From assembly GCA_965219455.1 (NCBI GenBank), contig OZ244744.1:4672001-4736000 (forward strand): a stretch of 64,000 bases of DNA, read 5' to 3'. Shown here one piece after another: positions 1,143 to 22,691 of this stretch (position 1 is its first letter; every line of letters starts with the position of its first letter). This DNA comes from Candidatus Latescibacterota bacterium (lineage in GTDB: Bacteria; Latescibacterota; UBA2968; GCA-2709665). The translations under genes and the position numbers were made by a program. The notes under the pieces were generated by a model that was not told the DNA's origin, did not search any database, and saw only the letters and a program-made list of their open reading frames with translations.

Positions 1143-1925
1143 ATGATCGATGACTCGTACAGTTTGGCAGCGAAGTACTACGACGCCGCGTACAGCGCGA
1201 AGGAAGACCTGGTCGACAGGGACTTCTATCTGGATCTGGCCAGGGAGTATGGCGGGCCTGTACTCGAGTTTGGCTGCGGGACTGGTAGAATTACTTTTCC
1301 GCTGGCACGGCAGGGTGTTGACGTCACGGGGATAGATGCATCTCGCGCGATGCTGGAGGTCCTGAGGGCAAAGCTCGCCGATGAACCTGCCGCCATAAAA
1401 CGCAGAGTACGAGTTGTAGAAGGAGATTTCAGGACCCTTTGTCTTGGCGATCAATTTCCCATGGTCGTGATTCCATTCAGACCCATGCAGCATATGTACA
1501 CGACGGAAGATCAACTGGCGGCCCTGAGAAACGCAGGGAGACACCTGGCGGATGGCGGGATCCTCGCGTTTGACGTATTCAATCCCCGTTTCGACAAACT
1601 GCTGTCCGGCGACGGCCAAGAGCACCTGGAACTGGAATGGCACACCGAGGACGAGACCGGCAGGACCATCCGGCGGTACTTTGTAAAGGACGGGTTCGAC
1701 CCGGTCAATCTGGTTTTTTCCGGGTCCTTTATCTTCCGGCTGTGCGAGGGTGACCAGGTTCTATCCGAGGAAGTGGAACTAATCAAGATGAGCGTCTATC
1801 CTCACCTCAAAGCGCTTTTTTCCGCGGCCGGTCTCGAGAGTGTGGGGGAATTCGGTTCGTTTGACCGGAAACCGATCGGGTCCGACACGCCGGAAATGAT
1901 ATTCCTCCTGAAGCGGCGGGTATAG
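1143..1925 (+). CDS. Class I SAM-dependent methyltransferase
   Basis: VLEFGCGTGR motif I, VTGIDAS, EGDFR, HLADGGILAFD. Confidence 0.9.
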   Translation: MIDDSYSLAAKYYDAAYSAKEDLVDRDFYLDLAREYGGPVLEFGCGTGRITFPLARQGVDVTGIDASRAMLEVLRAKLADEPAAIKRRVRVVEGDFRTLCLGDQFPMVVIPFRPMQHMYTTEDQLAALRNAGRHLADGGILAFDVFNPRFDKLLSGDGQEHLELEWHTEDETGRTIRRYFVKDGFDPVNLVFSGSFIFRLCEGDQVLSEEVELIKMSVYPHLKALFSAAGLESVGEFGSFDRKPIGSDTPEMIFLLKRRV

Positions 1926-5538: not shown

Positions 5539-6341
5539 ATGTGTTCTATGTTGGACGACCTTTCGGATTCACGCGTCACTGCTGCGATCGAGCAGAACAA
5601 CATCGATCTGTTCCTCTTTGCCGCCGCCGTGGGCCGAAAAACCATCTTGAGGGAGGAAGACACTTCACCGGGGTCATCGGCAAGCCGTGGTGGCCGAACT
5701 ACCTCGTCGAGCCTCGCTTCCGCGACGAAACTCTCGAGAGCCGCATACACCGTATTCGTGAGGAGATTGAGCAGAGGAAGCTGCCGCCGCTCCTGAAGTT
5801 CGGTCCGAAAGCAGAGCCGAAGCATCTGAGAGCGCATCTGTTGAGCAACGGTTTCGTGGCGATGGATCACAATCCTTCGGGAATGGCGATGCGATTGGAC
5901 ACGATGGAAGGGGGACATCCGGTCCCGGACGACCTCAGAATCGAGCGGGTGAGTGATGACCGGGCACTACGTGAATGGCTGTCATTCTTCACGTTATTCG
6001 AATTCCAGATGTTCAGGGTTCCCATCCAGTCGCCCGTGGTTAAGCTTTATGTGGGGAGAATTGACGGTGAGCCGGTTGGAGTTTCGATGATGTTTCTGTC
6101 ATCGGGCGTTGGCGGGCTGTATCAGGTGGAAGTTTCGTCGGAGCACCGAAGGCAGGGAATCGGAACCGCGATGACGCTGGCCCCTATGGAGGACGCTCGT
6201 CAACTGGGGTACAGGATTGCCGTACTGCAGGCGTCGAAGATGGGTGAACCGGTCTACCGGAGAATCGGCTTCGAGTCGTACTTCAAGTACAACTACCTTC
6301 ATCCAAGGGGATGTACCTTTGCCGACTTCAAGGCTGCGTGA
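5539..6341 (+). pseudogene. GNAT acetyltransferase with a frameshift near 5660
   Basis: N-terminus (DLSDSRVTAAIEQN) is in frame 5539, while the body (WPN..., VSSEHRRQGIGTAM, LQASKMGEPVYRRIGF) is in frame 5541. Confidence 0.7.
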
Positions 6342-6422
6342 GAACCAACCTGCGGGGAATACATCAAAAATGGTGTTGATGCCCAGGCCGCAAACCGTCC
6401 ACTGAACAGGGGCAATTTCAAG

Positions 6423-6806
6423 ATGAAAATCATCCTCAATAGTGTATTTGTGGAAGACCAGGACAAGGCATTGAAGTTCTATACTGAAACCCTTGGTTTT
6501 GTCAAAAAGCACGATGTTCCCGTCGGGGCGTTCAAATGGCTCACGGTGGTCTCGCCCGAGGACCGGGACGGGACTGAGCTTTTGCTCGAGCCGAACGAGA
6601 ATCCGGTCGCGAAGGCATACCAGAAAGGAATATTCGAACAGGGTATCGCCGCTACGGCCTTTGGCGTTGACGATATTCGTGCAGAGTATGAGCGGTTAAA
6701 TGCACTCGGAGTGAGATTTACAATGGAGCCAACGCAGTGGGAAGACGTTATCCTGGCGGTCTTTGATGATACGTGCGGCAACCTCATTCAGATAATGCAA
6801 ACGTAG
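6423..6806 (+). CDS. VOC/glyoxalase family protein
   Basis: VFVEDQDKALKFYTETLGF, WLTVVSPE, AVFDDTCGNLIQI. Confidence 0.92.
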   Translation: MKIILNSVFVEDQDKALKFYTETLGFVKKHDVPVGAFKWLTVVSPEDRDGTELLLEPNENPVAKAYQKGIFEQGIAATAFGVDDIRAEYERLNALGVRFTMEPTQWEDVILAVFDDTCGNLIQIMQT

Positions 6807-6928
6807 AGTCAACCCCGCGGCACTGCCATACCCGACAACGCAGAGACCCGAATTCGGTGTTCCCAAGCTTATCGAACAGTTTTGGGAATTTTTTTTGACG
6901 GTGATAAACCACCATTTCGGCGAGAAAT

Positions 6929-7684
6929 GTGAAGACCTTTATTCAGTCCGGCACCAGGTTTCTGGTAGAGGTCGGGACTAAACCAAAGCCAGGACTGGTT
7001 CGATGGACGACATGGGGCCATAACGACATTCAACAGTCATATCTGCTTTCCACATCCGATGGATCTATTCTGATTGATCCGATACGGCCCATTGGTAGAC
7101 AAGCTCTGAATGCCCTGAGGGAACATGCCGATGGTCGATTTCAAGCTGTAGTCTGCACGAGCCCAAACCACGAACGAGATGTGGAGTGGTTCCGCAAACG
7201 GTTCAAGATACCTGTATACGGGCCGGAGTTGGCCCCTGCCAGGTCACGCATCAGGCTGAAGTCAGATGAACTATATCGAGATGGCGATATACTTCCCGGG
7301 AACATTCGCGCGATTTGGTCAGGAGATAAACGAGGTGAGATGTGGCTGTTGTGGAGGGCTGCGAGGACATCCAGGGTCCTGATTTGCGCAGATTCGATAT
7401 ATGGACAATCCCGGAGGGGAGGGTTCGATGGTGCGACCGTACCGTACTGGATTCAGGAAGGCGGGATCCGGTTGCAGATGAATGGCGAAGTCAGTCCCAG
7501 CGAAATGAGACGCAGGTATGAACGTCTTGAAGATTATGAGTTTGGGATTGTCCTGAACGTTCACAATCCGCGTCCTATTGAGAATGCGAAATCCGCACTT
7601 GAAAGAGCGCTGACCCATGGCAAATATGAGACGCATCCGAAACGCGCGTTCAGTGTTATCGCGGCAGATTTATCGGGGGAATGA
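6929..7684 (+). CDS. Metallo-beta-lactamase-fold protein (degenerate)
   Basis: SYLL..ILIDP, TSPNHERD, LICADS, VLNVH. Confidence 0.55.
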   Translation: MKTFIQSGTRFLVEVGTKPKPGLVRWTTWGHNDIQQSYLLSTSDGSILIDPIRPIGRQALNALREHADGRFQAVVCTSPNHERDVEWFRKRFKIPVYGPELAPARSRIRLKSDELYRDGDILPGNIRAIWSGDKRGEMWLLWRAARTSRVLICADSIYGQSRRGGFDGATVPYWIQEGGIRLQMNGEVSPSEMRRRYERLEDYEFGIVLNVHNPRPIENAKSALERALTHGKYETHPKRAFSVIAADLSGE

Positions 7685-8062: not shown

Positions 8063-8308
8063 TTAAACGTGACCGTAAAATTCATTTCGGTCTATTTGCA
8101 ATGCTCTCAAAACTGCTCTGATTTGTGGTATCCTGATTTGTTCATTGGGTTTGCCTGCTGTTCCTGAATATAGTAATTCTCCGTCGACTGTGCGGGTAAA
8201 ACCCCAATAAGTTCCAATGACATCTGTGCCGCTTTCCTGAATATCACATTCGCAATTGAAATTTTGTATTAAACACTCTTTGAACTGTTCAAACGGCAGA
8301 TAAAACAC
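8063..8308 (-). CDS. HicA-like small protein (putative toxin)
   Basis: 81 aa; C-terminal helix IPQIRAVLRALQIDRNEF resembles HicA; downstream of a HicB-like gene; no GSH motif. Confidence 0.45.
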   Translation of the reverse strand: MFYLPFEQFKECLIQNFNCECDIQESGTDVIGTYWGFTRTVDGELLYSGTAGKPNEQIRIPQIRAVLRALQIDRNEFYGHV

Positions 8309-8318
8309 AGCGAAATCC

Positions 8319-8675
8319 TCATGCGCAAACGCGAGAGTTCGCTTTTACAACAGGCATCAAAGGTGTTTTCCATTCATCAAGAGCAAGTCGACGATGATTG
8401 CGTTTTAGCTGAGCGTCCTCGGCTTCTTCAAACATGGTCCAGAACTTCTCAGGGGCCTTCTCAATGCCTTGTAAGATTTCCCGGTTATTTGTGGCATCAA
8501 AATGGCAATGAGTCATAATTGTAACGTAAAACCGAGCCCTGACCTGGGGTATTGTCTGTCCTTGAGCAACAATATCATATTCAAGACCCTGAGCAATCCA
8601 AACATCTTCGTTCCTATACAAAAGGACGTTTACTTGAATGACATCTGACAACGACCTTGTAGTTTTCCCGTTCAT
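8319..8675 (-). CDS. HicB-like protein (putative antitoxin)
   Basis: VLLYRNEDVWIAQGLEYDIVAQGQTIPQV resembles the HicB N-terminal fold; RBS GGGAG. Confidence 0.6.
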   Translation of the reverse strand: MNGKTTRSLSDVIQVNVLLYRNEDVWIAQGLEYDIVAQGQTIPQVRARFYVTIMTHCHFDATNNREILQGIEKAPEKFWTMFEEAEDAQLKRNHRRLALDEWKTPLMPVVKANSRVCA

Positions 8676-8714
8676 TGCGTACTCCCGTGGTTGTCATTTG
8701 CATATCCTTTCACA

Positions 8715-8744
8715 AAAATACGTTATCGGAGTACGGTCTGTCAA
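8715..8744 (-). promoter_or_regulatory. Putative sigma70 promoter of cassette A cargo
   Basis: TTGACA-N18-TATTTT on the minus strand; positionally equivalent to the promoter in cassette B. Confidence 0.5.
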
Positions 8745-9006
8745 GTGTAAAAATCCAGAAACGCATGTACGTACTGGGTTGTACAGACCGTAACAGAAAG
8801 GGGAACAAAGTGTGGGTATCGTTGAAATGTGACTTTGCGCTATAATTCCCTTTTTAATTAGAAAACAATGAAGAGGGCGAAGGAACGCCTAACGTCAACG
8901 GATGTATCAGTACCGATACATAGGTGCTTGCCGACGGGGCTTCAATAAGGCCACGGATCCACATTCGCGGAATTGGAAACTCGCAGTTGGTATTATACAA
9001 GCTCGA

Positions 9007-9132
9007 TCAAAGCTTGATCAAAATGAGCGTGCCAAGCGTGATCAAGCTTGTGATCTGGATTCCCAAAAGCCATCGAATCCAGAACAAGAGATCACGTTGG
9101 CCTTGCTCGAGGCTGTTCAAGCGTGCATCCAT
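9007..9132 (-). CDS. Small coiled-coil/transmembrane protein (41 aa), possible last gene of the operon
   Basis: MDARLNSLEQGQRDLLFWIRWLLGIQITSLITLGTLILIKL; starts 4 nt after the SNF2 stop, preceded by GAGGGG. Confidence 0.45.
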   Translation of the reverse strand: MDARLNSLEQGQRDLLFWIRWLLGIQITSLITLGTLILIKL

Positions 9133-9136
9133 CGGC

Positions 9137-11251
9137 TCAATAATCCCCTCGGTTTGATACGAGCGGCCGTTCCAATCCGAACAGCCCGAAAAGTTCATCA
9201 CTGTTCAACTGGGCGGACAGATCCATCGACACGTCGTCGATGAGTTGGTTAAACAGTTCCCGTTTGTTCTCCAGAATATCGTCAATACGCTCCTCAATGG
9301 TTCCGATGCAGGAATACTTGATGACGTTGACTTTGACCGTCTGGCCGATGCGGTGGCTTCGGTCTTCGGCTTGACTTTCTACGGCGGGGTTCCACCAACG
9401 GTCCAGGTGAATCACGTAGGACGCCTCCTGCAGGTTCAATCCCAAACCGCCCGCCCGCAGCGACAGTACCAACACTTTGTGTTCGCTGCAGGTCTTGAAT
9501 CGTTCGATGATTTCGGCTCGCTCCTGCGGAGGCAAGTCTCCGGTGATGGTAAGCGGAATGAAATCCCGCATTTGGTTGGCCACGGCCCCCACGCCGGATG
9601 TGTCGCTGACGTACTGCGAGAAGATCAGCGTCTTGTGTCCCTGTGCTACCAGTTGGTCCACGCGGTCCTTGATGTCTGCCAATTTGCTGGATTCACCGGT
9701 CATTGGGTCGGCGTTGCAGATTTGCTTCAAGCGAGTGATGAGCTCAAGCACGTGCCGCACGTTGACTTCCGCGCCAAGAGACTTCAGGTAGACGATGCCT
9801 TCCTGTTCGGCCTTATCGTAGCTCTTGCGTTGGCGGGAGCCCAACTCGATGTCTACCTTCGTGACCTGCTTGACGGGAAGGTCTTTCAAGACCTCCGCTT
9901 TTTTGCGTCGAACCTGCAACTCACGATGACGCCGCTGCAATTCCACACCTGGATGGTACCATTTTCTTACACCAGTGTGGTCATAGTCAACGAACTCCAG
10001 TATCGAGGCCAACTCCTCTTCGCGATTCTCCATAGGGGTGCCGGTCAGAGCCCAGGAGCGGTTTCTTTTCAGCCCTTTCAGCGCATCGCTCGTATCGTTG
10101 CGGTTCTTGATCCTCTGAGCCTCGTCGGCTACCACAACGTCCCAGTTTTTGCGACCCACCAGAGCTTGGGTGCTGAAGTCAGACCGCAGGGTATCGTAAC
10201 TCACGAGTGTTATTTCTTTCTCGGCATGCCACTGCCAACTGCGGTCCGATACCGAACCACGGATGATGATGGCGGAAAGCTCAGGCGCCCATTTTTCGAT
10301 TTCGCGCCGCCACTGGTTCAGCACGCTTGCAGGAGCCGTGATCAAGCACGATTTGATTTCGCGACGTGCGCGGAGAATCCGTAAGGCTGTGATCGCCTGT
10401 ACGGTTTTACCCAGGCCCATGTCGTCGGCCAACAGCAGCCGGCGGTTTTCCAGCAAAGCCCGGACACCCTGCTGCTGGAAGGGCATCAAGTCACCGGCCC
10501 AATGCAGCGGGACCGCTCGGAAAGGTTCCGGCGGATTGGCCAGAACGGTCCACAGACGTTCGGCCAGAGTTGCGTCGGCTCCTGGGCCTGAACTTGCCTT
10601 ATGGACGTTCTCACGAATTGCCGGGTAATCGCTGGTGGGATATCCGGGGCGTTCGGGCAATGAAGATAAGCTCACTACAACGGCCAAACCTGAAAGGTCG
10701 GTGACAGCGTGAATCCGATCGTCGTCAAACGCTACGTCCAATCCTGCAGTCGCCCGTTCGAAAGGTTCAGCGGGATTGCCCCGGTCCAGTATCTCTACGA
10801 GAAGTTGGCTCGCTTCGGTATCCGGAGTGGGTTTTTCCGTAACCCAATGCAAATCATAACCCTCGTTATACGGGTCGGCCGATTCGCCATTGGGCCGAAC
10901 ACCGGATGTTGCGATACGGCAAAAGGGAACCTGTACCTTTATTTCTTCGTTGATCGATCCATGAGGTACTTCATCGGCCCGGGCGAGTAACAACGTCGGC
11001 ACAGTTGTGACAGCTCTGAGTAGTGATCCTGCCAGCGATTGCAAGATTTCCGGCTTGACGATTGCAAGTTGTCCACCAGACCCCGAGCAGACCGTCCGGG
11101 TGAAGCAAAAATCCAGGGGTTCACCCTGTGCGGACGTCTCGAATAGCGCCGCCCGTACGCCTTTACCGCCCTTTTCTTCGACGAACCGTAGCCAGGCCAC
11201 CGCGCCGGATCCCGTATTCACCGATTTCAGTTCATTGAAAAGTTCCGGCAA
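9137..11251 (-). CDS. SNF2-family (SF2) helicase/ATPase with an uncharacterised N-terminal domain
   Basis: LLADDMGLGKT, DEAQRIKN, LTGTPMEN, AGGLGLNL, DRWWNPAVESQAEDRSHRIGQ; about 245 aa N-terminal extension. Confidence 0.93.
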   Translation of the reverse strand: MPELFNELKSVNTGSGAVAWLRFVEEKGGKGVRAALFETSAQGEPLDFCFTRTVCSGSGGQLAIVKPEILQSLAGSLLRAVTTVPTLLLARADEVPHGSINEEIKVQVPFCRIATSGVRPNGESADPYNEGYDLHWVTEKPTPDTEASQLLVEILDRGNPAEPFERATAGLDVAFDDDRIHAVTDLSGLAVVVSLSSLPERPGYPTSDYPAIRENVHKASSGPGADATLAERLWTVLANPPEPFRAVPLHWAGDLMPFQQQGVRALLENRRLLLADDMGLGKTVQAITALRILRARREIKSCLITAPASVLNQWRREIEKWAPELSAIIIRGSVSDRSWQWHAEKEITLVSYDTLRSDFSTQALVGRKNWDVVVADEAQRIKNRNDTSDALKGLKRNRSWALTGTPMENREEELASILEFVDYDHTGVRKWYHPGVELQRRHRELQVRRKKAEVLKDLPVKQVTKVDIELGSRQRKSYDKAEQEGIVYLKSLGAEVNVRHVLELITRLKQICNADPMTGESSKLADIKDRVDQLVAQGHKTLIFSQYVSDTSGVGAVANQMRDFIPLTITGDLPPQERAEIIERFKTCSEHKVLVLSLRAGGLGLNLQEASYVIHLDRWWNPAVESQAEDRSHRIGQTVKVNVIKYSCIGTIEERIDDILENKRELFNQLIDDVSMDLSAQLNSDELFGLFGLERPLVSNRGDY

Positions 11252-11286
11252 TTCAGTATACCCCAGGAAGGAGAAGTGGTCCGCTT

Positions 11287-12555
11287 CTAATCAGTGTCGT
11301 CCCTGGACTCTCGTTCGAGGTCGACGTTCTCTGCATAGGGGTGTCGGAACTCCTCGCCCTCGGTGTTGGGCTGGTAGTCGGGATAGCGCCGCATCAAATC
11401 CCATTCGTTGATGGCTGCGCGGACCTTGTAGCGCATCCGGTTCTGATACCCGGCGCCGCCGGCCCTTATTGGCACCGGCGGAGCATCCCAGCCGTAGGCG
11501 TCGGTGTAGAGTCTCCGTAGATTCTCCATGGTCGGTAGAACGTCCGCGTCGGTTGGTGGATTCAACGGCGAACATCCTCGTACGAGCAATTCCATACCGA
11601 TTTCGGCGTCTGACTTCGAAATCTTGAAACGTTCCGTACTATCCATCTTTGGCACCACGTAATCGCGGTCTTTTTTTCCATCCGTGATGATTGCGGAAGC
11701 AAAATCGTCGGTGACGGAGCCCACGGTTCTCAGCCCGGGATACGACCCGCTGGCCGCCTGTCCCAGCCAGCGAGCCAGCTCGGCGTAAGACCTTCCCCGT
11801 TGCAGGAGAGTGTACGAACCGACGAGTTCGATCTCGTCCAGCAGCACCACCCAGCCCCGGTAACCAGCAGCCTTGATCAGCTGGACGGCGAAACGGAGAC
11901 GCTGGGGCGGCAGGTCGGCGGCTCTGGGCGCTCGGAAAGAGTAACTCTGCTTTTGCCCTATCTGCCTGAGGCCATTCTTGACCCGGGAAATGTAGATTCT
12001 GTCGCCCGCCCAGAAGTTCTCGATCTCGCTGTTCAGTTCGAAATCGCGCGACCGTTCGTGAACAAGCAGACTGGCCGGGAACATCTGGCTCAGCCCATTA
12101 GCGCCGGTGTCGTTTGCCCACTTGAAGAAGCTGGCGTATTCTTGTGAATCGGGCTTCAACGCCTGTCCCAGTTCCTCCATCAACCGGCCGGTGCGGTCGG
12201 GCATCTGGGCGTTATCCACGGCCGACTTGAATACCTTGCCCAGGTCGTATAGCGGCGTCTCCTTGCTGATGGTCACCTTGCTACAGACGAATCCCTGGGA
12301 AAGGGCCCGATCTTCCAGGTGAGTAAGCAGGTGAGACTTGCCGGAGCCGAAATCCCCGGAGACCAGCATTCCCAAAGTGCCGGTCGAAAGGTCAACACCT
12401 TTCGTAGCTCCGGTCAACATACCTTCGAATTGACCTTCAGCCTCCGCCTGGTTGCAGCCCAATAGCTTCACAGCGTCCCTGTTGGGTACGCCGTTTCGGA
12501 GGGCCTCAAGGGCCCGCCTGGAGGCGAATTTGTGTCTATCGGCGCAAACTGCCAC
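11287..12555 (-). CDS. BrxD-like (DUF2791) P-loop ATPase
   Basis: RRALEALRNGVP N-terminus, Walker A GDFGSGKS, SKETPL, Walker B GYRGWVVLLDEIE. Confidence 0.85.
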   Translation of the reverse strand: MAVCADRHKFASRRALEALRNGVPNRDAVKLLGCNQAEAEGQFEGMLTGATKGVDLSTGTLGMLVSGDFGSGKSHLLTHLEDRALSQGFVCSKVTISKETPLYDLGKVFKSAVDNAQMPDRTGRLMEELGQALKPDSQEYASFFKWANDTGANGLSQMFPASLLVHERSRDFELNSEIENFWAGDRIYISRVKNGLRQIGQKQSYSFRAPRAADLPPQRLRFAVQLIKAAGYRGWVVLLDEIELVGSYTLLQRGRSYAELARWLGQAASGSYPGLRTVGSVTDDFASAIITDGKKDRDYVVPKMDSTERFKISKSDAEIGMELLVRGCSPLNPPTDADVLPTMENLRRLYTDAYGWDAPPVPIRAGGAGYQNRMRYKVRAAINEWDLMRRYPDYQPNTEGEEFRHPYAENVDLERESRDDTD

Positions 12556-12569
12556 TGCCTTCCACCTTC

Positions 12570-13538
12570 CTATGTCAGCCGCACCAGGGATGCGACCGGA
12601 TTTACCCGGTTCCTATCGCGAACATCGTCCATCACCCGGGTGCGCAGGGCCTCATATATCCCGTAGCCCCGGGACCTGCGATCGCCACTGTCGTCGAGGA
12701 AATCGCTGTTGGTTACGACCACCAGTACCGTGCTCGTCAACCGGTCAGCGCCGTCGACAAATTCCCGCAGTAACTCGTAGTGTTCCATCGCCATGGCTCT
12801 GGTGTAGTAGCGCAGACCGTCCCTCGGATTTCTAGCCACCGTTACGCGAGCGTTGTCAAACAATACTACAGTTCCGGAGTGCCCTACCTGATGAATCCAG
12901 TAGAGGGCCGATTCGATGAAGTATCGGGCCGTGTTGCGATTGATACTGGTGTAGATGGAAAAGGGACGGACGCCGCTGATTCGCGTGTTCTCGCCCGTCA
13001 GCCACTCCAGGAGCGGCTCGCCAGTGTATCCGCCACGGCTGTATTCTTCCGTGCAAAGATGGCTCATACACACCCGGAAATCTCTCGCCATTTTCGTGTT
13101 CCTGAAGACAGCGTTCTGAATCATCGGCCTCAGGTTTCCGATCACGAACTCCGATTCGAGACCGTTGACCGTCGCGATGGCGTCGAAGACGTTGCCGTCC
13201 ACGCCGGGGCGGATTCCACCAATCTGGTAGTCCTGCTCGGCGGCCAGCTTCAGGATCATACGACGAGCCAGCAGCCGCCAATCGACCTGGCTGGCGATCC
13301 TGAAGAAGAAGTCCTGCGGCATGTGCGCCCGCATCGTCTCTGCGTTCAGTTTAATGAAAAGATAGTCCAACTCATGGCAGCTTGCCTCCATTCTTGCGTA
13401 CAAACCAGCCCTGGAACCCTCGTTTGATGGCACTGCGAACTTGATCGACGCGCCGCCACCGCGGACAAACGACGAAAGGTACTCTTCGTTAATGACCTGA
13501 ATCCAGTCCTTGAGAGAGATGGAAATTGTGTTGTGCAT
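12570..13538 (-). CDS. BrxD-like paralog with degenerate Walker motifs
   Basis: GGASIKFAV-PSNEGSRA at the P-loop position (no GKS/T); GHSGTVVLFDNARV at Walker B; YELLREFVD and YEALRTRV are typical of DUF2791 C-terminal motifs. Confidence 0.75.
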   Translation of the reverse strand: MHNTISISLKDWIQVINEEYLSSFVRGGGASIKFAVPSNEGSRAGLYARMEASCHELDYLFIKLNAETMRAHMPQDFFFRIASQVDWRLLARRMILKLAAEQDYQIGGIRPGVDGNVFDAIATVNGLESEFVIGNLRPMIQNAVFRNTKMARDFRVCMSHLCTEEYSRGGYTGEPLLEWLTGENTRISGVRPFSIYTSINRNTARYFIESALYWIHQVGHSGTVVLFDNARVTVARNPRDGLRYYTRAMAMEHYELLREFVDGADRLTSTVLVVVTNSDFLDDSGDRRSRGYGIYEALRTRVMDDVRDRNRVNPVASLVRLT

Positions 13539-14338
13539 CAGTCATCCCTCGTAAATCGAATGCCGAAGTACTTGATGTCCTGGCCCTGTGGCCCCACAAA
13601 GGTGAATACGTTTCTGGCGCCCCGGGTGCCCGTGGATGCGTGGAAAAATACTCTGGCGCCTGACGTCGTCTTTGTAACTCCGCTTGTCTCCAACTGGTAA
13701 AGGTCACGGGCAAAGTCAATTTGAGCATAATCTCGTCCGGTACCCGGCAGAGAGGTGAACAACCTGTAGATTCTTGCCAAAAGTACCACGCGCCCGGAAC
13801 CGCCCTTCATGAGTCCATCCGAAGCATCTTCCTTCACAAGCTCCAGGTAAACCCTGTACAGGGCTTCCAAAAACCGTTTAGCCGAGAAGCGGCTGCGCTT
13901 CCTCTGATTCGCGATCAGCAGATCGACCAGGTAGGACGGCTTAATGGTCGAGATCTTCTTGTTGTCGATTCGGACCGCCTCATCCTCGGTTAAAATTCGC
14001 AAGGTGGACGGGTGTGAGATCAACTGCTTGTCCCGTTCATGGATTTCCAGGCCCCTTTCCGAGGCGGCACGACGCAGTTCGTCAATATAGCCACCCTTGA
14101 GGTATTCTTCCACTTCTTCATCTCCATAGGGCCAGGATTGGACAGCGTCTGACACCACCTGCGTCAGGTTCTCCAGGGCGTCGTTAAATCCGCCTCGGGA
14201 CTTCTTGATTGCAGCGATGTTACCCTCTTTGGCCGCCTTTTGCAGACGTCTGGTCAACTTCACCAGGTTGTTAGCGGATTGGAGGGCTGATTTCGCTGCA
14301 CTTTCGGAGTCGTCAAATGCTTGTCCGATACTGTCCAT
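13538..14338 (-). CDS. Hypothetical protein (N-terminal helical/coiled-coil, C-terminal alpha/beta domain), first gene of the operon
   Basis: 266-aa ORF; its stop overlaps the next start (TGATG). Confidence 0.8.
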   Translation of the reverse strand: MDSIGQAFDDSESAAKSALQSANNLVKLTRRLQKAAKEGNIAAIKKSRGGFNDALENLTQVVSDAVQSWPYGDEEVEEYLKGGYIDELRRAASERGLEIHERDKQLISHPSTLRILTEDEAVRIDNKKISTIKPSYLVDLLIANQRKRSRFSAKRFLEALYRVYLELVKEDASDGLMKGGSGRVVLLARIYRLFTSLPGTGRDYAQIDFARDLYQLETSGVTKTTSGARVFFHASTGTRGARNVFTFVGPQGQDIKYFGIRFTRDD

Positions 14339-14473
14339 ATTTTGTTTCCCGCGTTCGAAAGATCTGTCGAATCAGCGACATGATCAATGGTAGACACAGC
14401 TATCACCGGAATTTCTTCCTGTTCCCTCTTCATGAAAATAGCCGAAATTGCCCTCTGGCGGCGTGGTTTATTC

Positions 14474-14502
14474 AGCATATAGTATTACGTGCGTGTTGTC
14501 AA
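14474..14502 (-). promoter_or_regulatory. Sigma70-type promoter of the BrxD-like/SNF2 operon
   Basis: TTGACA-N17-TATGCT on the minus strand, about 135 nt upstream of the first gene. Confidence 0.65.
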
Positions 14503-14590
14503 GCAAATCGTTCGCAATTTCAGAAAAGGCGCAGCCGTCGTGGCCGCGCCTTGATTTCCCTCCGATGATGTCTGTGGACCTCTTGCCGGT

Positions 14591-15865
14591 CTAGTCGATC
14601 TTTCCGTGTCTGCGAAGCACGGCGTCGATATCAGCGACACCGGTTCGCTTCCTGGTTCCCTCGAACTTCACTCCCGCCTTAAGCAGTGCGTCGATCACGG
14701 CCGGATAGTCGGCCACCGGGTTCGGCGCATTGATCGCGAAATGCAGGGCCGTGCCAATCGCGGTGCCACCAAACTCGTTCCGCAATTCGATCGAGGGGCC
14801 GCGATCGAGGATCAGAGTCAGGGTGTCGAGATGTCCCTGGGCCGCGGCCCACATCAGGCCTGTCATCCCCCACGTGCCCTGTCCGTTCACGTCGGCGCCT
14901 TTTGCCAGCAGGTATTCGGCGACGTCCGTTCGTCCGAATCGACAGGCATCTTCAAACGCGGCTGCCAGATCGGCCTGAGACACACCGCACTCTTCAACGA
15001 ATTCCTTCGTCAGGTCCAACCGGCCCAGCCCCGCGGCCATCGCGACGTTCTTCACCTCCGCCCCCAGACGCACCAGGGCGGCTGCCGAATCGGGATATCC
15101 GAATTTTAACGCCAGGCGTACCGGCGCACCGTCTCCATTCACGCCATCCACCCTGGAACCCGCCTCCACGAATACCTCGATCAGTTCGGTCGCCACACCC
15201 ATATAGTGTGGATGAACACTGGTCACCAGCGCCAACATGGGCGTGTCTCCCGATTCGCCCGGCCCGCACAGGGCGTCCACCTCGGCGCCGGCACTAAGCA
15301 GAAACCGCGCGATCTCCGGCGCATTGGCGGGCGACCGCTGCCGAAAGTCCTCAATGCCGTTCGCGGCGAGATAGTAAACCAGGGTCGCCCGGTGAATCCG
15401 CGCCGAACGGGCGCAGACCAGGGCCGGATTACGGCGCAGGAGCGTCTGGAGCTTCGGAAGGTCCCCGTCGACCACCGCATCGGCCGCAACCTCGAACTCG
15501 GCCCCTTCATCGGTCTCGCGCGAGTCCCGGTCGATGAAGGTAGCAAATTCGTCCCAATTCACGAAGCTGTGGGCCCGCGCAATGAGAAATTGCGCGCCGG
15601 CAAGCCCGAATTCCCGGCCGCCCTTTCTCGCCTTCTCCTTCATTTCACGGGCGCCTTTTTCGACTTCGCCGATGGCCCGTTCGTAGCTGCCCCGCACGAA
15701 GTCCGTCAGGTCGGGTCCGGATAGACGGACAATCTCGTCGAACCAATCGTTGCAGAACTCCTTTAGCGCGCTGGTATTTTGGGACTGCGCCGAGTTGACA
15801 AGATCCTCGGCGCGTTTCACATATTGTGCAAGGTCGGGACGGGCTGGCAGCGGAAAGGTATCCAT
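14591..15865 (-). CDS. Ankyrin repeat protein
   Basis: Repeats such as GRTDVAEYLLAKGADVN, GMTGLMWAAAQGHLDTLTLIL; N-terminal LPARPDLAQY..AEDL and AQFLIARAHSF..W. Confidence 0.88.
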   Translation of the reverse strand: MDTFPLPARPDLAQYVKRAEDLVNSAQSQNTSALKEFCNDWFDEIVRLSGPDLTDFVRGSYERAIGEVEKGAREMKEKARKGGREFGLAGAQFLIARAHSFVNWDEFATFIDRDSRETDEGAEFEVAADAVVDGDLPKLQTLLRRNPALVCARSARIHRATLVYYLAANGIEDFRQRSPANAPEIARFLLSAGAEVDALCGPGESGDTPMLALVTSVHPHYMGVATELIEVFVEAGSRVDGVNGDGAPVRLALKFGYPDSAAALVRLGAEVKNVAMAAGLGRLDLTKEFVEECGVSQADLAAAFEDACRFGRTDVAEYLLAKGADVNGQGTWGMTGLMWAAAQGHLDTLTLILDRGPSIELRNEFGGTAIGTALHFAINAPNPVADYPAVIDALLKAGVKFEGTRKRTGVADIDAVLRRHGKID

Positions 15866-16319
15866 TGGTAGTTTCTCTCGTTAATTGGGGGTCCTTGTAC
15901 GAAGTCGGCGACTGTAATCTCTGTTCTATGGGCTATGCTTGCCGGTGGCAATTTAGCTCAATCGTTATTTGCCAAAACATCAAAACTGGCGATCGGCAGC
16001 TACGTGCCAGTATTCAGCCGACACCGGTTAGCGACACGGTCCGACGACTTCAATGGGAGATGAAAACACCAGGACGCGGCCGGAGGTTGTTTCTCCGCGT
16101 TATAAGGTCCAGCATCACCATCGTATTGCAATTCTTCCCTCGGGCGGCCGGTGGCGGTGAGGTGGGTTTGTTTGCGGCAGAATTCGCGCCGCTCACCATC
16201 AGCCTCGAACGCCAGAACCAGGCGTCCCTGGTTGTTCCGCATAAACCCTCGGAACAACAGGTAACCCGTTGCGCGGATGGTGGAATTCATCCGTTCCGCA
16301 GTCGAAATTCACGACCTTT

Positions 16320-16810
16320 CCCCAAATTCCCTGCCTTCGGCGAGTTCCTTTTGAAGCGACCAAAAGGAACCAAAAGTCGCCGCTAGGCGCGGGGCCGTAC
16401 CTATGCATGACGCGAACCTCGACTGTGGATGCACCGGACTTTCTGCCCTGTCACCCCTGGAGGGTACCGTAATCTGGAGTGGGACGGGACAGCGCGTCCT
16501 GCTCTGAGAGTCGTCCGGATGGGACTCGCCAACAAGCCCTATTGGCTCCCTGCCGACGAGTCGTATGTAAGTTATTCACGCGTTCCGGAGCGGCTTCGCC
16601 CCTCGATCGGCCGGTTGCGGAGATCGGGGTTTTTCCGTGTCATTCCGTACATCTCCGTAGGTCGGAAGTTCCTGGAACTCTCGTAGGGCGACCAATTTCC
16701 ATTTGTGCCCCTGAGGAGATTCACGGAAAAACCGGCTCCGCGCCGAGCGGCGCGGTTCTTTTTGGTCCTTTTTCTGCGAATAAGAAAAAGGACAAGGGAA
16801 TAGGGGACGT
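16320..16810. repeat. Structured intergenic element (about 490 bp) with imperfect inverted ends and terminal hairpins
   Basis: Hairpins GTTCCTTTTG/CAAAAGGAAC (16344-16370) and GTCCTTTTTCT/AGAAAAAGGAC (16765-16793); the right end recurs at 39150-39178 (28/29 identical). Confidence 0.55.
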
Positions 16811-17056
16811 CGGGGGGAGGTGGAACTTCAACCTAATGCTTAGCAGGCCCGGGCGCTGCGACGGAGCGAAACCGGTCCGGCATCAAGCTATACAATCCTG
16901 GTCCCTGTTTCAAGTTCTATACCACGTCCGCTTCAGGTATTCGAAACAATGTCCGCAGGACCCCATATTTTGCACATCTGCCCGTTGTAAGTCCGTTTCC
17001 GCAATTGGAATTACGAAGAATAGTGGTTTTGTAGCGATTTTGTTATATTGAAGTCT

Positions 17057-18334
17057 ATGAAAAGAGAAGACTACTATCGATGGGCTGAACGCGCCGCACA
17101 GTGGGGCGCCGGGTACCTGGCCACGCTAGAGGAGCGGCCGGTCCGGGCGCAGACCCGACCCGGCGAGATCGCCTCGATGCTGCCCCCGGCGCCGCCGGAA
17201 GCGCCGGACGACATGGAGACGATCTTTGCCGACTTCGAGCGCATCGTGCCGAACGGCATGACCCACTGGCAACACCCGCGCTTTTTCGCATACTTCCCTG
17301 CCAATGCGGCGCCGGCGTCGATGATTGCCGAGAATCTAACGGCAGTCATGGCGGCCCAGTGTATGCTCTGGCAGACCTCGCCGGCAGCCACTGAGATCGA
17401 GACGCGGATGGTCGACTGGATGCGCCAGGCGCTCGGGCTGCCGGAAGGGTTCCAGGGGGTGATCCAGGACACGGCAACGACGGCGAATCTCTGCGCGGTA
17501 CTGACAATGCGCGAGCGCGCACTGAACTGGAGAGGGATCGATTCTGGAATGGCGGGGGAGAAACCGCTCAGGATCTACGCCTCGCCGGAAACTCACTCGT
17601 CCATCGACAAGGCGGTACGGATCGCCGCGTCCGACCGGGTGGGCCCGGCCATCCAAGTCGCGCGAGCGTATGATCTCTACGTCCACGTCGACGCCGCGTG
17701 GGCCGGATCCGCGATGATCTGCCCTGAGCTACGGGAGTTATGGGACGGCGTCGAGGGGGCCGACAGTATCGTCTTCAATCCCCACAAGTGGCTCGGCGCT
17801 CAGTTCGACTGCTCGATCCAGTTTCTCGCGGACCCGGAACCGCAGGTCCGCACCCTGGGCATTCGGCCGGAATATCTCCAGACACTCGGCCAGTCCGAGA
17901 TTACCAACTATAGCGAGTGGACGATCCCCCTGGGGCGCAGGTTCCGGGCTCTCAAGCTCTGGTTCCTGCTCCGCGCCCATGGGCTGGAAGACCTCCGCCT
18001 GCGGATCCGGAACCATATCACGTGGGCCGAGGAGGCCGCGGCGGCGATCTCATCGCTGGACGGCTTTCGCCGGACGACGGACCCCCGACTGTCGCTCTTC
18101 ACGTTCCAATACGCGCCCGACGGCGAGGATGCCAACGCCGCCACCGAGCGCCTGCTGCGCACGGTCAACGACGACGGTCGAATATATCTCACGCATACGA
18201 TCCACGAGGAACAGTTCGTCATCCGCTTCCTGGTCGGACAGTTCGACTGTCGGAGGGAGGATGTGCTCCTGGCGGTCGACGTGCTGCGGGAGTTGGCCTC
18301 AGGCATCAACCCCCGTGCCCGATACGGACGTTGA
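17057..18334 (+). pseudogene. PLP-dependent (aromatic-L-amino-acid type) decarboxylase with an apparent in-frame internal deletion
   Basis: THWQHPRFFAYFP, SPAATE, HVDAAWAG, FNPHKW, GRRFRALKLW; HSSIDKAVRIA runs directly into ASDRV, skipping the segment normally found between them. Confidence 0.75.
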
Positions 18335-20759: not shown

Positions 20760-22124
20760 ATGATGCATCGCTCCATAGCCAGAATAAGTGCTAGGCAGCT
20801 CTTCGGGGCATATGACTACGAACTTCATCCGTCGAAAGATGCAGATGAATCGAACAGGCTACTAATCCTCTACGGCGACAATGGGACCGGGAAGACGACG
20901 GTCCTAAAAGTGCTCTTTTACCTTATCTCATCGGAAAGCGGTCAGGGACATAAAACAACCTTGGTTGGTATTCCACTCTCCGAATTCAAGGTCCAATTTG
21001 ACAATGGAGACAGAGTCTGGATGCAACGTTCCGATGGGAAACTTACAGGAAGCTTCACGATGGGGATGAAGGTTCGGGGACATAAAGAACAGACGGCGGA
21101 TTTCAAGGTAGACGAGGACGGACACATCAAGGCAAACACTAAGACAAGCAGATTTCTGAACAAGCTGAGATCTCTTGAGTTGGCTACATACTTCCTGTCA
21201 GATAACCGGAATATGTGGTTTGCGGGTGTCAGAGACCTTGATTCTGATTACAATTTCAATGATTATACCGATGAGGAAAGATACTTGACAGCTGACCCTG
21301 CGACCCGTCGACGCTATAGGAGGCTAACAAGAGTCAGAGAAGAAGAGAGAACCTATCTGCTTTTGCAGGAATCCATTCGCCGATCGGAACAATGGCTGCA
21401 GTCTCAGGCAGTCAGAGGTGCATCAAAGGGCGAGTCGAGCGTAAACGTCTTGTATGGTGAAATTCTGAAACGGATCTCAAAATTCCCGATTACCTCAGAA
21501 GATACCGATGCGTCAAAGGTCGAAGCCATATATGAAAGAATCACAGAGCTAGAGACACGATCAGGAAATTTCGCCAAATACGGGCTCACCCCAGGCTTTC
21601 AGGGAAAGGAGATAGCCGAGATAATCAGGAATACACCGAAGAGCCATGTCGGTATTGTGACGACTGTCATTGAACCTTACATCGATAGCGTTGAGCGCAA
21701 GTTAGAAGCAATACAGGATCTTCAGAAGCGAATAGACACCCTTGTGGATCTCCTGAATTCGTTCTTTCGAGATAAGGAGATCAGCTATGACATCCACAGT
21801 GGTTTTGCCATTACGACTTCGGGTGGTGACCTGCTGAAGCCTCAGATGCTGTCCTCTGGCGAACGTCATCTAATGCTTCTGTTTTGCAACACTGTTCAGG
21901 CGTTGAACAAACCCAGCATATTTATTATCGACGAGCCAGAGATTTCGTTGAATGTAAAATGGCAGAGACGTCTTCTGTCGGCATTGCTCAAATGTGCCGA
22001 GGGTCAGCCAGTTCAGTATATTTTGGCGACTCACAGCCTCGAACTCCTTGCTCGGTACAGCAACAATACGGTGAAGCTCGACTCTAGTAACGGGGGACCT
22101 AGTGGAACAGAAAAGGACACTTAA
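20760..22124 (+). CDS. ABC-type ATPase (AAA_15/AAA_21), AriA-like
   Basis: Walker A GDNGTGKTT, signature LSSGE, Walker B IIDEPEISL, H-loop ATHS; overlaps the downstream DUF4435 gene. Confidence 0.85.
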   Translation: MMHRSIARISARQLFGAYDYELHPSKDADESNRLLILYGDNGTGKTTVLKVLFYLISSESGQGHKTTLVGIPLSEFKVQFDNGDRVWMQRSDGKLTGSFTMGMKVRGHKEQTADFKVDEDGHIKANTKTSRFLNKLRSLELATYFLSDNRNMWFAGVRDLDSDYNFNDYTDEERYLTADPATRRRYRRLTRVREEERTYLLLQESIRRSEQWLQSQAVRGASKGESSVNVLYGEILKRISKFPITSEDTDASKVEAIYERITELETRSGNFAKYGLTPGFQGKEIAEIIRNTPKSHVGIVTTVIEPYIDSVERKLEAIQDLQKRIDTLVDLLNSFFRDKEISYDIHSGFAITTSGGDLLKPQMLSSGERHLMLLFCNTVQALNKPSIFIIDEPEISLNVKWQRRLLSALLKCAEGQPVQYILATHSLELLARYSNNTVKLDSSNGGPSGTEKDT

Positions 22125-22691
22125 GGAGCTGCAAGTTCTCTACGAATTCGAACCGGAGCTTCGGGATCTTTATGTTGAGGGCCCGACGGATGCGAATTTT
22201 TTTCGCTGGTTTCTTGAAACCTGTGGTGTATACGAAGTTACCGTGTACTCGATAGATGTCCTTGATGTCCCAGAGGATATCGTACGAAAACACTCACTAA
22301 GTCCAGGTTCAGCCAAGGGGCGCCTCATAGCATTGTCCTGTGAACTAGCGAGCACTGCCGCTTCCGATTGCGTCTTGTGCATTGCTGATCGAGACTTTGA
22401 CTTAAATGGTTCCATTCGAACGAACGTGTGTCTGCGATGGACAGATGGCAACACTCTCGAGTTATATGCACTGCGTCCAACTGTATTCCGGAAGTTTCTG
22501 CTTGTAGCGCTCGGTGGTATCACGTTATCACCAGAGGATCTATTTAATCAATGTATTACTGTCTTAGAGCGAGTCTACTCAATGCGTATTGCCAATGAAG
22601 TCTTGGGGTGGAAGATGTCATGGGTACCATTCAAGCGATACGTGAAGGTTAGCGGAGCTTCAATTGAGTATCGAGAAAGTAACTTCATTAG

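Follow-up and report, generated by a model that had tools for sequence, protein, structure and literature searches.

Is a compact minus-strand operon encoding two BrxD-like ATPases and a SNF2 helicase in a Candidatus Latescibacterota genome a remnant of a BREX locus, or is it a system in its own right? The operon lies in the window analysed here, a 64,000-nucleotide stretch of contig OZ244744.1 (positions 4,672,001 to 4,736,000), for which a first-pass annotation had proposed a new defence system. The observation itself is confirmed overall and its interpretation is partly supported.

Gene organization and transcription

The cassette comprises the following features:

14474..14502, minus strand: candidate sigma-70-like promoter TTGACA-N17-TATGCT, 136 nt upstream of the g1 ATG
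13538-14338, minus strand: g1, 266 aa, ATG start, no known family
12570-13538, minus strand: g2, 322 aa, ATG start, degenerate BrxD-like (ORC/Cdc6-clade) AAA+ paralogue
11287-12555, minus strand: g3, 422 aa, GTG start, BrxD-like AAA+ ATPase
9137-11251, minus strand: g4, 704 aa, TTG start, SNF2 protein

These ORF coordinates confirm the four-gene minus-strand layout noted previously, in which g1 and g2 overlap by 1 nt (base 13538), g2 and g3 are 14 nt apart and g3 and g4 are separated by 35 nt. All four ORFs are intact, and the left end of the noted interval (9007) falls 130 nt past the g4 stop at 9137. The description of the surroundings as almost all plus-strand is roughly correct for the first 42 kb, the exceptions being a minus-strand block at 8063-15865 and a transposase.

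The promoter sequence noted previously is indeed present and fits the consensus at 10 of 12 positions; however, such sites are no more abundant than expected by chance (6 in 8.5 kb, compared with 4.6 ± 2.2 in shuffled sequence) and the match is therefore a candidate only. A GC hairpin followed by a T-run (∼14520-14552), located after the stop codon of the upstream ankyrin gene, suggests that the cassette is a separate transcription unit from that gene. RNA-library contigs from three studies match pieces of all four genes with 95–100% identity, and two of them span the g3/g4 and g2/g3 junctions, making expression of the cassette possible, although DNA carry-over could also give rise to these contigs.

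An ATPase pair and a conserved partner of no known family

Judged by their sequences, g2 and g3 are BrxD-like AAA+ paralogues, one of which lacks the catalytic motifs. The g3 protein matches the Pfam family PF10923 (BrxC_BrxD) at 4.8e-18, and g2, for which homologues were found in 649 cluster representatives (E ≤ 0.001), matches it at 3.8e-8 in a region confined to the C-terminal half (residues 149-321) and is also matched by the PADLOC BrxD model (2.8e-6). Walker A (GSGKS, residues 70-74) and Walker B (LLDEIE, residues 238-243) motifs are both found in g3, where GxGKS and LLDE are conserved in 24 of 24 aligned sequences. The GK[ST] P-loop is absent from g2, which has a Walker-B-like motif of the form hhhhD-N; its aspartate is retained in 37 of 40 sequences and is followed by asparagine in 24 of 40, with glutamate outside the four commonest residues at this position. 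These motifs agree with the earlier designation of g2 as inactive and g3 as active. Direct profile comparison of g2 with g3 gives a weak match limited to the Walker B region (E 0.0058, probability 6%), and a 744-aa protein (P0165) is a g2–g3 fusion (g2 at residues 4-315, g3 at 327-744; 39% identity). With 58 bits on the NCBIfam BREX_BrxD model against a cut-off of 350, g3 is not a BrxD equivalog.

Searches of Pfam, PADLOC and NCBIfam placed g1 in no family, and 30 members scanned one by one yielded neither a family match nor a TerB domain. At least 369 homologues of 263–270 aa were found, and in species-genome and metagenome loci the gene is always immediately upstream of g2. The AF2 model of g1 (pLDDT 86) predicts that a helical hairpin (residues 1-72) is followed by a beta-rich stretch and a C-terminal part of helices and strands, with structural matches confined to the N-terminal hairpin. 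Residues E87, D103 and D125-x-K127 are invariant (alignment A1), a pattern that resembles that of PD-(D/E)xK nucleases.

A SNF2 motor with a predicted nuclease-fold domain

The g4 protein can be divided into three parts:

10697..11251, minus strand: N-terminal domain (aa 1-185), RNase H-like fold, candidate nuclease
10517..10696, minus strand: linker (aa 186-245), variable, low confidence
9137..10516, minus strand: SNF2 translocase core (aa 246-704), SNF2-rel_dom and Helicase_C, intact motifs

Pfam assigns SNF2-rel_dom (3.3e-47) and Helicase_C (7.9e-20) to the core, which retains the motifs GLGKT (279-283), DEAQ (376-379), TGTP (403-406) and QAEDRSHRIGQ (627-637). Among PADLOC models the core is most similar to the defence SNF2 proteins ZorD, DpdE and DrmD, the top model being ZorD (2.4e-84, helicase core only); the NCBIfam ZorD model, whose cut-off is 1500 bits, gives it 149. 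The linker is poorly conserved in the alignment and has pLDDT values below 50 at residues 200-222.

The N-terminal domain, overlooked in the first-pass annotation, is likely to be the effector, with a predicted RNase H fold of the EndoV/UvrC/PIWI type. In structure comparison its nearest folds are endonuclease V, the UvrC C-terminal endonuclease and PIWI (TM 0.3–0.44, rmsd 4–5 Å), with PIWI modules fitting as well as EndoV; a Pfam search of the domain returned no match supporting a nuclease. Its acidic residues are near-universal, the first catalytic position being acidic in 81% of sequences, and E26, E94 and E162 are candidate metal ligands. SNF2 family matches were present in 30 of the 30 longer proteins found with this domain, and in 10 loci the domain is encoded by a separate gene, split at one boundary. 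At one locus (L120), the SNF2 protein lacks the N-terminal domain and carries a C-terminal Mrr_cat domain (1.2e-19), indicating a nuclease-for-nuclease swap.

Conservation, distribution and genomic context

Of 80 loci in species genomes, 78 have the gene order g1-g2-g3; g4 comes next in 66 and is lacking in 12. Among metagenome loci (33–68% identity), g1 is present in all 56 with room upstream and the SNF2 core in 23 of the 30 with at least 2.6 kb downstream. The co-occurrence of the SNF2 gene with the ATPase pair, proposed earlier as a test of the unit, is therefore observed; the conserved four-gene unit holds for g1-g2-g3 but not throughout for the helicase. The invariant core is g1-g2-g3, and the SNF2 gene is a frequent yet dispensable fourth member. 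All-against-all clustering of 1417 ORFs revealed no conserved neighbour beside the cassette, since only its four genes and the split N-domain ORF recur in more than seven loci.

Presence of the cassette is patchy even inside the genus, where 8 of 14 other species carry g1; across the phylum, 11 of 168 genomes do so. Two congeners that lack the cassette have 2.5–2.8 kb between shared conserved flanks that are separated by 9.7–10.2 kb in two others that carry it, so that congeners differ by a ∼7-kb presence/absence indel. A quick tree of g3 places the Latescibacterota clade beside a Dehalococcoidia row (SH-aLRT 97) and shows other phyla interleaved with Chloroflexota; copies from Dehalococcoidia show 57–76% identity. 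This cross-phylum similarity and interleaving point to frequent horizontal transfer. No match was obtained in 72,556 plasmid records (g2, tblastn), there were no confirmed cassette matches in viral contigs, and neither flanking terminal inverted or direct repeats nor a nearby tRNA was found in the window.

Two neighbours in the window lie within 10 kb of the cassette:

20760-22124: AriA/PtuA-like ABC ATPase (1.1e-24)
22925-24310: IS transposase

The remaining neighbours, in a family scan covering the ORFs between positions 231 and 36623, are mostly metabolic (GNATs, glyoxalases, a PLP decarboxylase) and include a DUF2971 protein. The defence neighbours claimed previously are only partly confirmed: they are represented by the AriA/PtuA-like ATPase, and PADLOC matches at 1e-6 or better were obtained for 4 of the 32 ORFs flanking the cassette. 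A PADLOC scan covered 139 out of 606 flank ORFs, from 16 loci, and gave matches (1e-10 or better) for 11 of them at 6 loci, a raw count without a matched control; several of these matches are generic (ankyrin, SAM methyltransferase), while HNH, AbiL/AriA-like and PDC-S01 matches occur in some flanks outside the window. The defence-island signal around the cassette is weak.

Relation to BREX and other known systems

Membership of g2 and g3 in the BrxC/BrxD Pfam family raises the question of whether the cassette is what decay has left of a type 2 or type 6 BREX system, or acts as an accessory to one in trans. In type 2 BREX, BrxD forms a tight dyad with the helicase BrxHI and is proposed to load or activate it (PMC12839542). 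The cassette resembles this dyad in the tight linkage of a stand-alone PF10923 ATPase of the ORC/Cdc6 clade to an SF2 helicase, but its helicase is SNF2 rather than Lhr/Ski2-like, its ATPases form an inactive and active pair, g1 is added, and PglZ, PglX, BrxC and PglW are lacking. The only PglZ domain of the genome belongs to a PorX-like response regulator beside a histidine kinase, ∼505 kb away, and PF10923 occurs at this locus only; the earlier claim that BREX core genes are missing accordingly holds for the window ORFs between positions 231 and 36623 and, for PglZ and PF10923, genome-wide. Clustering revealed no conserved BREX core gene next to the 80 loci, and no BREX core protein was detected among the 139 flanking ORFs. 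Together with the sub-threshold BrxD score of g3 and the conservation of intact genes as their own unit, this largely refutes a BREX origin of either kind, which we regard as highly improbable, and the cassette stands alone as proposed, independently of BREX.

In joining a SNF2 core to a nuclease domain, the presumed effector, g4 resembles ZorD of type I Zorya, Hna, DrmD, DpdE and the BREX-related 'BR' helicases, and the L120 variant bears Mrr_cat, the nuclease type of ZorD. Unlike in ZorD and other defence SNF2 proteins, the nuclease-like domain of g4 is N-terminal and of predicted RNase H/EndoV/PIWI rather than PD-(D/E)xK or HKD fold, and ZorABC, a methyltransferase and DUF499 are lacking. 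The N-terminal domain also differs from the EndoV/UvrC C-terminal/PIWI clade in having no sequence-family match, in its length of ∼185 aa without MID or PAZ, and in its fusion to SNF2 in each of the 30 longer proteins detected. Shango consists of the TerB protein SngA, the ATPase SngB and the helicase SngC; the cassette shares this logic of a small protein, an ATPase and a helicase, and g3 weakly matches SngB (3.7e-5, 40 residues around the P-loop), but g1 lacks TerB, there are two ATPase paralogues, and the SNF2 helicase has a nuclease-fold domain. Rakesh, Aravind and Krishnan 2024 (PMC10853773) describe mobile operons, assigned to anti-invader conflict, in which an active Orc/Cdc6 ATPase is likewise paired with a motif-disrupted copy. 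In the operons they describe, the partners are a KAP NTPase, HerA/FtsK or an REase instead of g1 and SNF2, and it is Walker B that is lost from the inactive copy, with Walker A retained, whereas g2 lacks the GK[ST] P-loop. In agreement with the earlier statement that no named system has this composition, no named system model in PADLOC or NCBIfam fits, and the ATPase-helicase-nuclease cassette, with its nuclease part predicted, is previously undescribed.

Proposed role

We favour the reading that this self-contained, horizontally mobile cassette is a DNA-targeting immune system of an unnamed type, directed against phages or mobile elements, with a probability of roughly 55%; its defence role is inferred. 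The strongest competitor, to which we give perhaps one chance in five, is an auxiliary module for DNA repair or the rescue of replication: lesions or stalled forks would be marked by the AAA+ pair and remodelled by SNF2, and the EndoV/UvrC-like domain would cut next to damaged (e.g. deaminated) bases. EndoV and UvrC are repair enzymes and a repair role therefore fits the N-terminal domain equally well; bacterial SNF2 proteins also serve transcription and repair (g4 matches the NCBIfam RapA model at 3.9e-10), the neighbours are mostly housekeeping or metabolic, and the cassette was not found in the phage and plasmid searches. Against this stand the patchy presence and frequent transfer of the cassette, the best scores of the helicase core to defence SNF2 models, the equally good fit of PIWI modules, and the swap at L120 to a restriction-type Mrr_cat domain, which is typical for immune effectors.

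Two further explanations appear unlikely, and about equally so. A transcription or nucleoid regulator, in which a RapA-like or 'pilus-expression-regulating Snf2'-like remodeller is served by an AAA+ loader without any role in conflict, would be consistent with the lack of an obvious toxin and with NCBIfam matches over the helicase core to the 'pilus expression-regulating Snf2 family helicase' (5.7e-78) and the SCO1167/SCO6262 family (4.4e-81). However, the scores (263 against 1100 and 273 against 1200 bits, respectively) are far under the cut-offs for family membership, and neither unrelated neighbours in each genome nor the exchange of nuclease-fold domains would be expected of a regulator. 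Alternatively, the cassette could serve a mobile element itself rather than host immunity, for instance in the targeting, exclusion or maintenance functions of an integrative element, with TnsC/IstB-like AAA+ logic; TnsC and TniB, which regulate transposition, are ATPases of the ORC/Cdc6 clade. This reading is also suggested by the ∼7-kb indel at a fixed site, by the IS elements in the window and near or inside two other copies (L048 and L053), and by TnsC being the top, though insignificant, PDB sequence match of the g3 profile (E 0.17); on the other hand, the 1417-ORF clustering shows no conserved transposase, integrase or relaxase alongside the cassette, the window contains neither terminal repeats nor a nearby tRNA, and searches of plasmid and viral collections did not recover the cassette.

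For the immune system that we favour, g2 and g3 would form a hetero-oligomeric ATP switch of the ORC/Cdc6 type which, with the predicted coiled-coil hairpin and conserved body of g1, may recognise a replication intermediate or DNA of foreign origin. Once bound to ATP, this complex would recruit or license g4, as proposed for the loading of BrxHI by BrxD, and g4 would move along the DNA and nick or cleave it through its RNase H-fold domain. Three-gene versions of the cassette would need another effector, possibly g1 itself, given its PD-(D/E)xK-like residue pattern. Since no methyltransferase is present, discrimination between self and non-self would not operate through modification of host DNA.

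Organization and possible expression of the cassette

The four ORFs of the cassette run head-to-tail on the minus strand, and the tight linkage described in the first-pass annotation is borne out: g1 and g2 overlap by one base, and the remaining gaps are 14 and 35 nt. The TTG start of g4 is confirmed by conservation of the N-terminus in homologues.

Features of the cassette (window coordinates)
14502-14474, minus strand: candidate promoter TTGACA-N17-TATGCT, 136 nt before g1
13538-14338, minus strand: g1, protein without assigned family, 266 aa
12570-13538, minus strand: g2, inactive BrxD-like ATPase, 322 aa
11287-12555, minus strand: g3, active BrxD-like ATPase, 422 aa
9137-11251, minus strand: g4, N-terminal domain plus SNF2 helicase, 704 aa, TTG start

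The promoter proposed by the same annotation is present as a match, but promoter-like matches in the region (six) are no more frequent than in shuffles (4.6 ± 2.2), so that 14502-14474 is a candidate promoter only. A GC hairpin and T-run at the end of the ankyrin gene (14591-15865) upstream of g1 suggest, at the level of sequence, that g1-g4 form their own transcription unit. RNA-library contigs from three studies cover pieces of all four genes, with X5 contigs over 11431-11649, 12712-13116 and 13553-13809 (0-1 differences), X1 and X2 contigs over 9160-10289 (∼96% identity) and X6 pieces spanning two gene junctions (11166-11363 and 12537-12755); DNA may be present in these libraries, such contigs are no proof of a single transcript, and stretches without cover are uninformative. 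Joints or diverged stretches occur in X5 and X2 contigs inside g2 (13199-13302 and 12813-13302); their probable source is related strains or different organisms of the metagenome. Downstream of g4 lie two small minus-strand ORFs (8063-8308, 81 aa; 8319-8675, 118 aa) for which Pfam, PADLOC and NCBIfam gave no family match; promoter-like sites are found near them (9021-8992 and 8744-8715) and an X5 contig covers 8173-8689.

An invariant three-gene core with an exchangeable fourth gene

A scan with a g1 pattern, taking one genome per species, returned 161 relatives, and 80 loci were kept and searched by tblastn with g1-g4. The gene g2 comes after g1 in all 80 loci, g3 follows in 78 and g4 in 66; a lack of conserved co-occurrence of the SNF2 gene with the ATPase pair would, by the first-pass annotation, have spoken against its proposal. 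Both loci without g3 after g2 are accounted for, one by a contig end and the other by a truncated second copy; the 14 without g4 comprise one contig end, one truncation and 12 three-gene versions, 11 of which are labelled Vicinamibacterales or Acidobacteria. Five three-gene genomes contained no g4 orthologue elsewhere, only generic SNF2 cores (36-41% identity) aligning from residue ∼253 on. When 1417 ORFs were clustered all-against-all, recurrence in more than seven loci was limited to g1-g4 and a split form of the g4 N-terminal domain.

An independent set, drawn from at least 550 metagenome stretches collected with the g2 alignment, provided a further 80 loci with identity down to 33%. In these, g1 is directly upstream wherever there is room (56/56), and of the 30 loci whose downstream sequence reaches 2.6 kb or more, 23 have a SNF2 core there. 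The agreement of the two sets defines g1-g2-g3 as the invariant core and the motor-nuclease as a frequent, exchangeable fourth part.

Several loci depart from this layout. In L120 (4589-9986), g1-g3 and a SNF2-Mrr_cat gene are followed on the same strand by an AAA (PF00004) ATPase with a weak nSTAND3 match and an 837-aa subtilase (Peptidase_S8), two genes that may together be a second, adjacent system. Two copies look disrupted: L048 (11765-16221) has two 441-aa ORFs within or after g3, with g4 3.5 kb further on, and L053 (12854-16819) has a truncated g3 and then a DDE transposase. The SNF2 protein after g3 has no N-terminal domain of the g4 type (alignment A4) in L142 (2820-4878; 480 aa, followed by a DUF520 protein) or in L150 (3764-5960; 638 aa, with a ∼180-aa C-terminal extension without assignment).

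The BrxD-like ATPase pair

g3 is an AAA+ ATPase of the BrxC_BrxD family (PF10923, 4.8e-18), with the Walker A (GxxGxGK[ST]) and Walker B (hhhhDE) patterns of active members of the ORC/Cdc6 clade; its GSGKS (70-74) and LLDE (238-241) motifs are invariant in 24/24 sequences. Unlike g3, g2 has neither GK[ST] nor DE, in keeping with the pair of inactive and active BrxD-like proteins recognized earlier. The Walker B Asp of g2 is kept in 37/40 sequences, the next residue being Asn in 24/40 with Glu outside the four commonest, and residues 28-33 carry a nearly invariant GG(A/S)(S/A)(V/I)K motif. Against the NCBIfam BrxD equivalog NF033438 (cut-off 350 bits), g3 scores 58.4 and g2 25.2 bits, which makes g3 BrxD-like rather than BrxD; by sequence, the two proteins form a separate subfamily within BrxD's Pfam family.

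The match of g2 to PF10923 covers residues 149-321 only (3.8e-8), and it is this shared Pfam family that argues for paralogy of g2 and g3, their profile-profile comparison being weak (E 0.0058, probability 6%). Some organisms have both as a single fused chain, for example P0165 (744 aa), where g2 corresponds to 4-315 and g3 to 327-744 at 39% identity; NCBI names one fused member simply 'BREX system ATP-binding domain-containing protein'. An ORF considered as a g3 extension (L051:4666-6981) has no PF10923 match and was dismissed as a spurious overlapping frame. Neither the g2 nor the g3 profile matched PDB sequences significantly, the best g3 hits being TnsC (0.17) and BrxC-BrxB (0.49).

The SNF2 motor and its N-terminal domain

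The SNF2 assignment of g4 holds in full: both helicase lobes (PF00176, 3.3e-47; PF00271, 7.9e-20) and motifs I, II, III and VI (GLGKT, DEAQ, TGTP, QAEDRSHRIGQ) are present, as expected of a SNF2 family translocase with an intact core. The best PADLOC matches, ZorD (2.4e-84), DpdE and DrmD, concern the helicase core only, and all NCBIfam matches fall far under their cut-offs.

Residues 1-185 form a conserved module to which no Pfam model matches. The AF2 model of this domain (pLDDT 75) has an RNase H-like fold, and Foldseek retrieved E. coli endonuclease V (E 1.2e-4, probability 1.00), the C-terminal half of UvrC (1.6e-4) and Argonaute PIWI domains. Across 90 unique sequences, an acidic residue is found at E94 in 90, at E162 in 88 and at E26 in 73, and R166 is kept in 89. 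In the model, E26, E94, E162 and R166 are positioned at the end of β1, just after β4 and where a late helix begins. Nucleases of the RNase H fold carry their metal ligands at such places, and the conserved acids would occupy the topologically expected metal-ligand positions of a candidate nuclease.

Three observations together indicate that the N-terminal domain is an autonomous, effector-type module. In 10/80 loci it stands alone as an ORF of ∼181 aa, split off at the same boundary, the frame of the SNF2 ORF being 0, 1 or 2; SNF2 family matches accompany it in all 30 longer proteins found; and the SNF2 protein of L120, a metagenome variant, is without it but has Mrr_cat, a restriction-endonuclease domain, at its C-terminus (1.2e-19).

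The g1 family

g1 belongs to a tight family of at least 369 proteins, nearly all of 263-270 aa, with a mean column identity of 70%. No match was obtained in Pfam, PADLOC or NCBIfam, either for g1 or for 30 members scanned singly. Residues E87, D103 and D125-x-K127 are invariant or nearly so (alignment A1) and sit in a helix-then-strands segment of the model; judged by sequence pattern, they could be a PD-(D/E)xK nuclease site. A nuclease of this kind in g1 would explain the three-gene versions without g4.

Foldseek comparison of g1 with the PDB returned nothing at E ≤ 0.001. Two further fold searches were filled by helical-hairpin matches on residues 1-72 and are informative for these residues only; an atlas search with residues 73-266 gave no usable match and one with the whole protein only 'hypothetical protein' clusters. 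The g1 profile found nothing significant among PDB sequences. No longer fused forms of g1 were found, which is weak evidence.

Distribution and mobility

Within the phylum, g1 is present in 11/168 genomes, and within the genus in 8 of 14 other species; genomes without it are 95-98% complete. The flanks shared among congeners correspond to window positions 5541-7675 and ∼16990-18334. They are 2.5 kb (G059) and 2.8 kb (G057) apart in cassette-free congeners against 9.7 kb (G058) and 10.2 kb (G060) in cassette-bearing ones, a difference that amounts to a ∼7-kb indel at one site. Neither flanking terminal repeats nor tRNA or Rfam matches were found in the window. The right edge of the cassette-bearing indel holds two modules of a dispersed repeat, ∼200 bp each (16305-16520 and 16605-16825); the repeat has 48 other matches in its own genome (67-96% identity) and dozens in congeners, and the modules overlap two ORFs (15826-16386 and 16479-17051), neither with a Pfam match.

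Dehalococcoidia copies share 57-76% identity with the proteins of the window. In a quick maximum-likelihood tree of 62 g3 proteins, rooted at the midpoint with no outgroup, the Latescibacterota clade is sister to a Dehalococcoidia row (SH-aLRT 97), and Binatota, Acidobacteriota, Actinomycetota and Pseudomonadota rows fall among Chloroflexota. A plasmid collection had no g2 match, and none of nine pattern matches in viral contigs was confirmed.

Genomic neighbours

The defence-related surroundings claimed in the first-pass annotation were recovered in part: an AriA/PtuA-like ABC ATPase (20760-22124) is present, but the neighbours in the window are mostly metabolic, the other exceptions being a DUF2971 protein, an NTase-domain protein and an IS transposase. 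In the flanks of 16 other loci, PADLOC matches (≤ 1e-10) occur in 11/139 ORFs from six loci (HNH twice, PDC-S01 twice, PDC-S41 twice, AbiL/AriA-like, mad2 twice, mad3 and ankyrin); with 139 of 606 flank ORFs scanned and no control set, this is suggestive at most of a defence island.

The 424-aa protein directly upstream of the cassette (14591-15865, minus strand) carries C-terminal ankyrin repeats, to which its PADLOC PDC-M72A and NCBIfam MzaA matches are limited, and its conservation next to the cassette is confined to six Latescibacterota loci, L004-L009. The ABC ATPase (AAA_21/AAA_15; AriA 1.1e-24) overlaps a 201-aa ORF without family match (20760-22707, plus strand), and together they might form a PARIS- or Septu-like pair; an intact DDE_Tnp_1_4 transposase follows (22925-24310, minus strand).

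Relationship to BREX and other known systems

The absence of a BREX core, proposed from the window, holds for the window ORFs scanned by family (231-36623) and, for PglZ and PF10923, extends to the whole 5.84-Mb single-contig genome, where PF10923 is found in g2 and g3 only and the sole PglZ domain, ∼505 kb away, is that of a Response_reg+PglZ protein whose neighbour is a histidine kinase (L177 7992-10906; G000:C1 ∼5.189-5.192 Mb); we read these two as a PorX-like two-component pair. The methyltransferase of the window (1143-1925) has a generic small SAM-MTase fold and lies on the opposite strand at a distance of 7 kb. The possibility that homologues sit mostly inside complete BREX loci is not supported, as BREX core models, including PglZ, matched none of the 139 flanking ORFs of 16 loci. 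Across the 80 loci no neighbour is conserved, BrxC/PglY, PglX and PAPS reductase included. In the excerpted text of a 2026 BREX survey, BrxD appears only as the BrxHI partner in type 2 and its role there is still termed uncharacterised (PMC12839542). The new 'BR' systems of those excerpts combine DUF499, a methyltransferase and an SNF2-nuclease, a DUF499-centred composition that differs from the cassette (PMC12839542). Excerpts of a further study list PF10923 among the Pgl genes that occur in sponge metagenomes but not in seawater (PMC5099237).

Type I Zorya does not fit, since g4 reaches 149 bits against the 1500-bit cut-off of the ZorD equivalog NF041790 and no Zor match occurs in g1-g3 or the window neighbours. 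Shango, whose SngA is defined by TerB, was ruled out, as TerB matched neither g1 (E ≤ 0.01) nor 30 family members (E ≤ 1). No system model of PADLOC (2023) or NCBIfam (2026) fits the cassette. The nearest published theme, going by excerpts of PMC10853773, is that of paired active and inactive Orc/Cdc6 operons, which have other partners. No published description of this composition was found, although it might be listed among the gene neighbourhoods in the supplements to PMC12839542 and PMC10853773, and literature searches linking DUF2791 with SNF2, or endonuclease V with SNF2 and anti-phage defence, gave nothing relevant. We place the cassette with the AAA+ plus helicase-nuclease conflict systems, two of its protein families being unannotated.

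Functional interpretation

The architecture comprises a small partner without assigned family (g1), an inactive/active pair of ORC-Cdc6-type ATPases and an SNF2 motor whose nuclease folds can be exchanged. Together with spread by transfer and presence or absence among close relatives, this is the pattern of prokaryotic immune systems, and we put the probability that the cassette is one at a little over one half (about 0.55). If BrxD-BrxHI and motor-nuclease effectors such as ZorD are a guide, g1 and the BrxD-like pseudo-enzyme/enzyme pair would license the SNF2 motor carrying the candidate N-terminal nuclease. The main rival is an accessory repair role, since endonuclease V and UvrC, the folds retrieved for the N-terminal domain, are themselves repair nucleases; we consider this role unlikely.

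Within the immune reading, a more specific proposal is tentative, and we would sooner bet against it than for it: a widespread class without a name, found in no fewer than 161 species genomes and 550 metagenome stretches, whose g1 (a new family, possibly PD-(D/E)xK) and ATPase pair would license an SNF2 motor with a new EndoV/PIWI-like nuclease of RNase H fold. Such a class would be a modification-independent, BREX-derived 'loader + motor-nuclease', and the first such immune effector outside Argonautes.

If the cassette is anti-phage, it would separate a BrxD-type ATPase from BREX and offer a minimal, three- to four-gene setting for its role. It adds two families without annotation, g1 and the SNF2 N-terminal domain, the latter of which would link the EndoV/UvrC/PIWI nuclease clade with SNF2 motors. 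The cassette is common to MAGs of Chloroflexota, Binatota, Acidobacteriota, Actinomycetota and Latescibacterota, and this sharing across phyla points to active module exchange among uncultured lineages, outside the cover of standard finders based on cultured bacteria.
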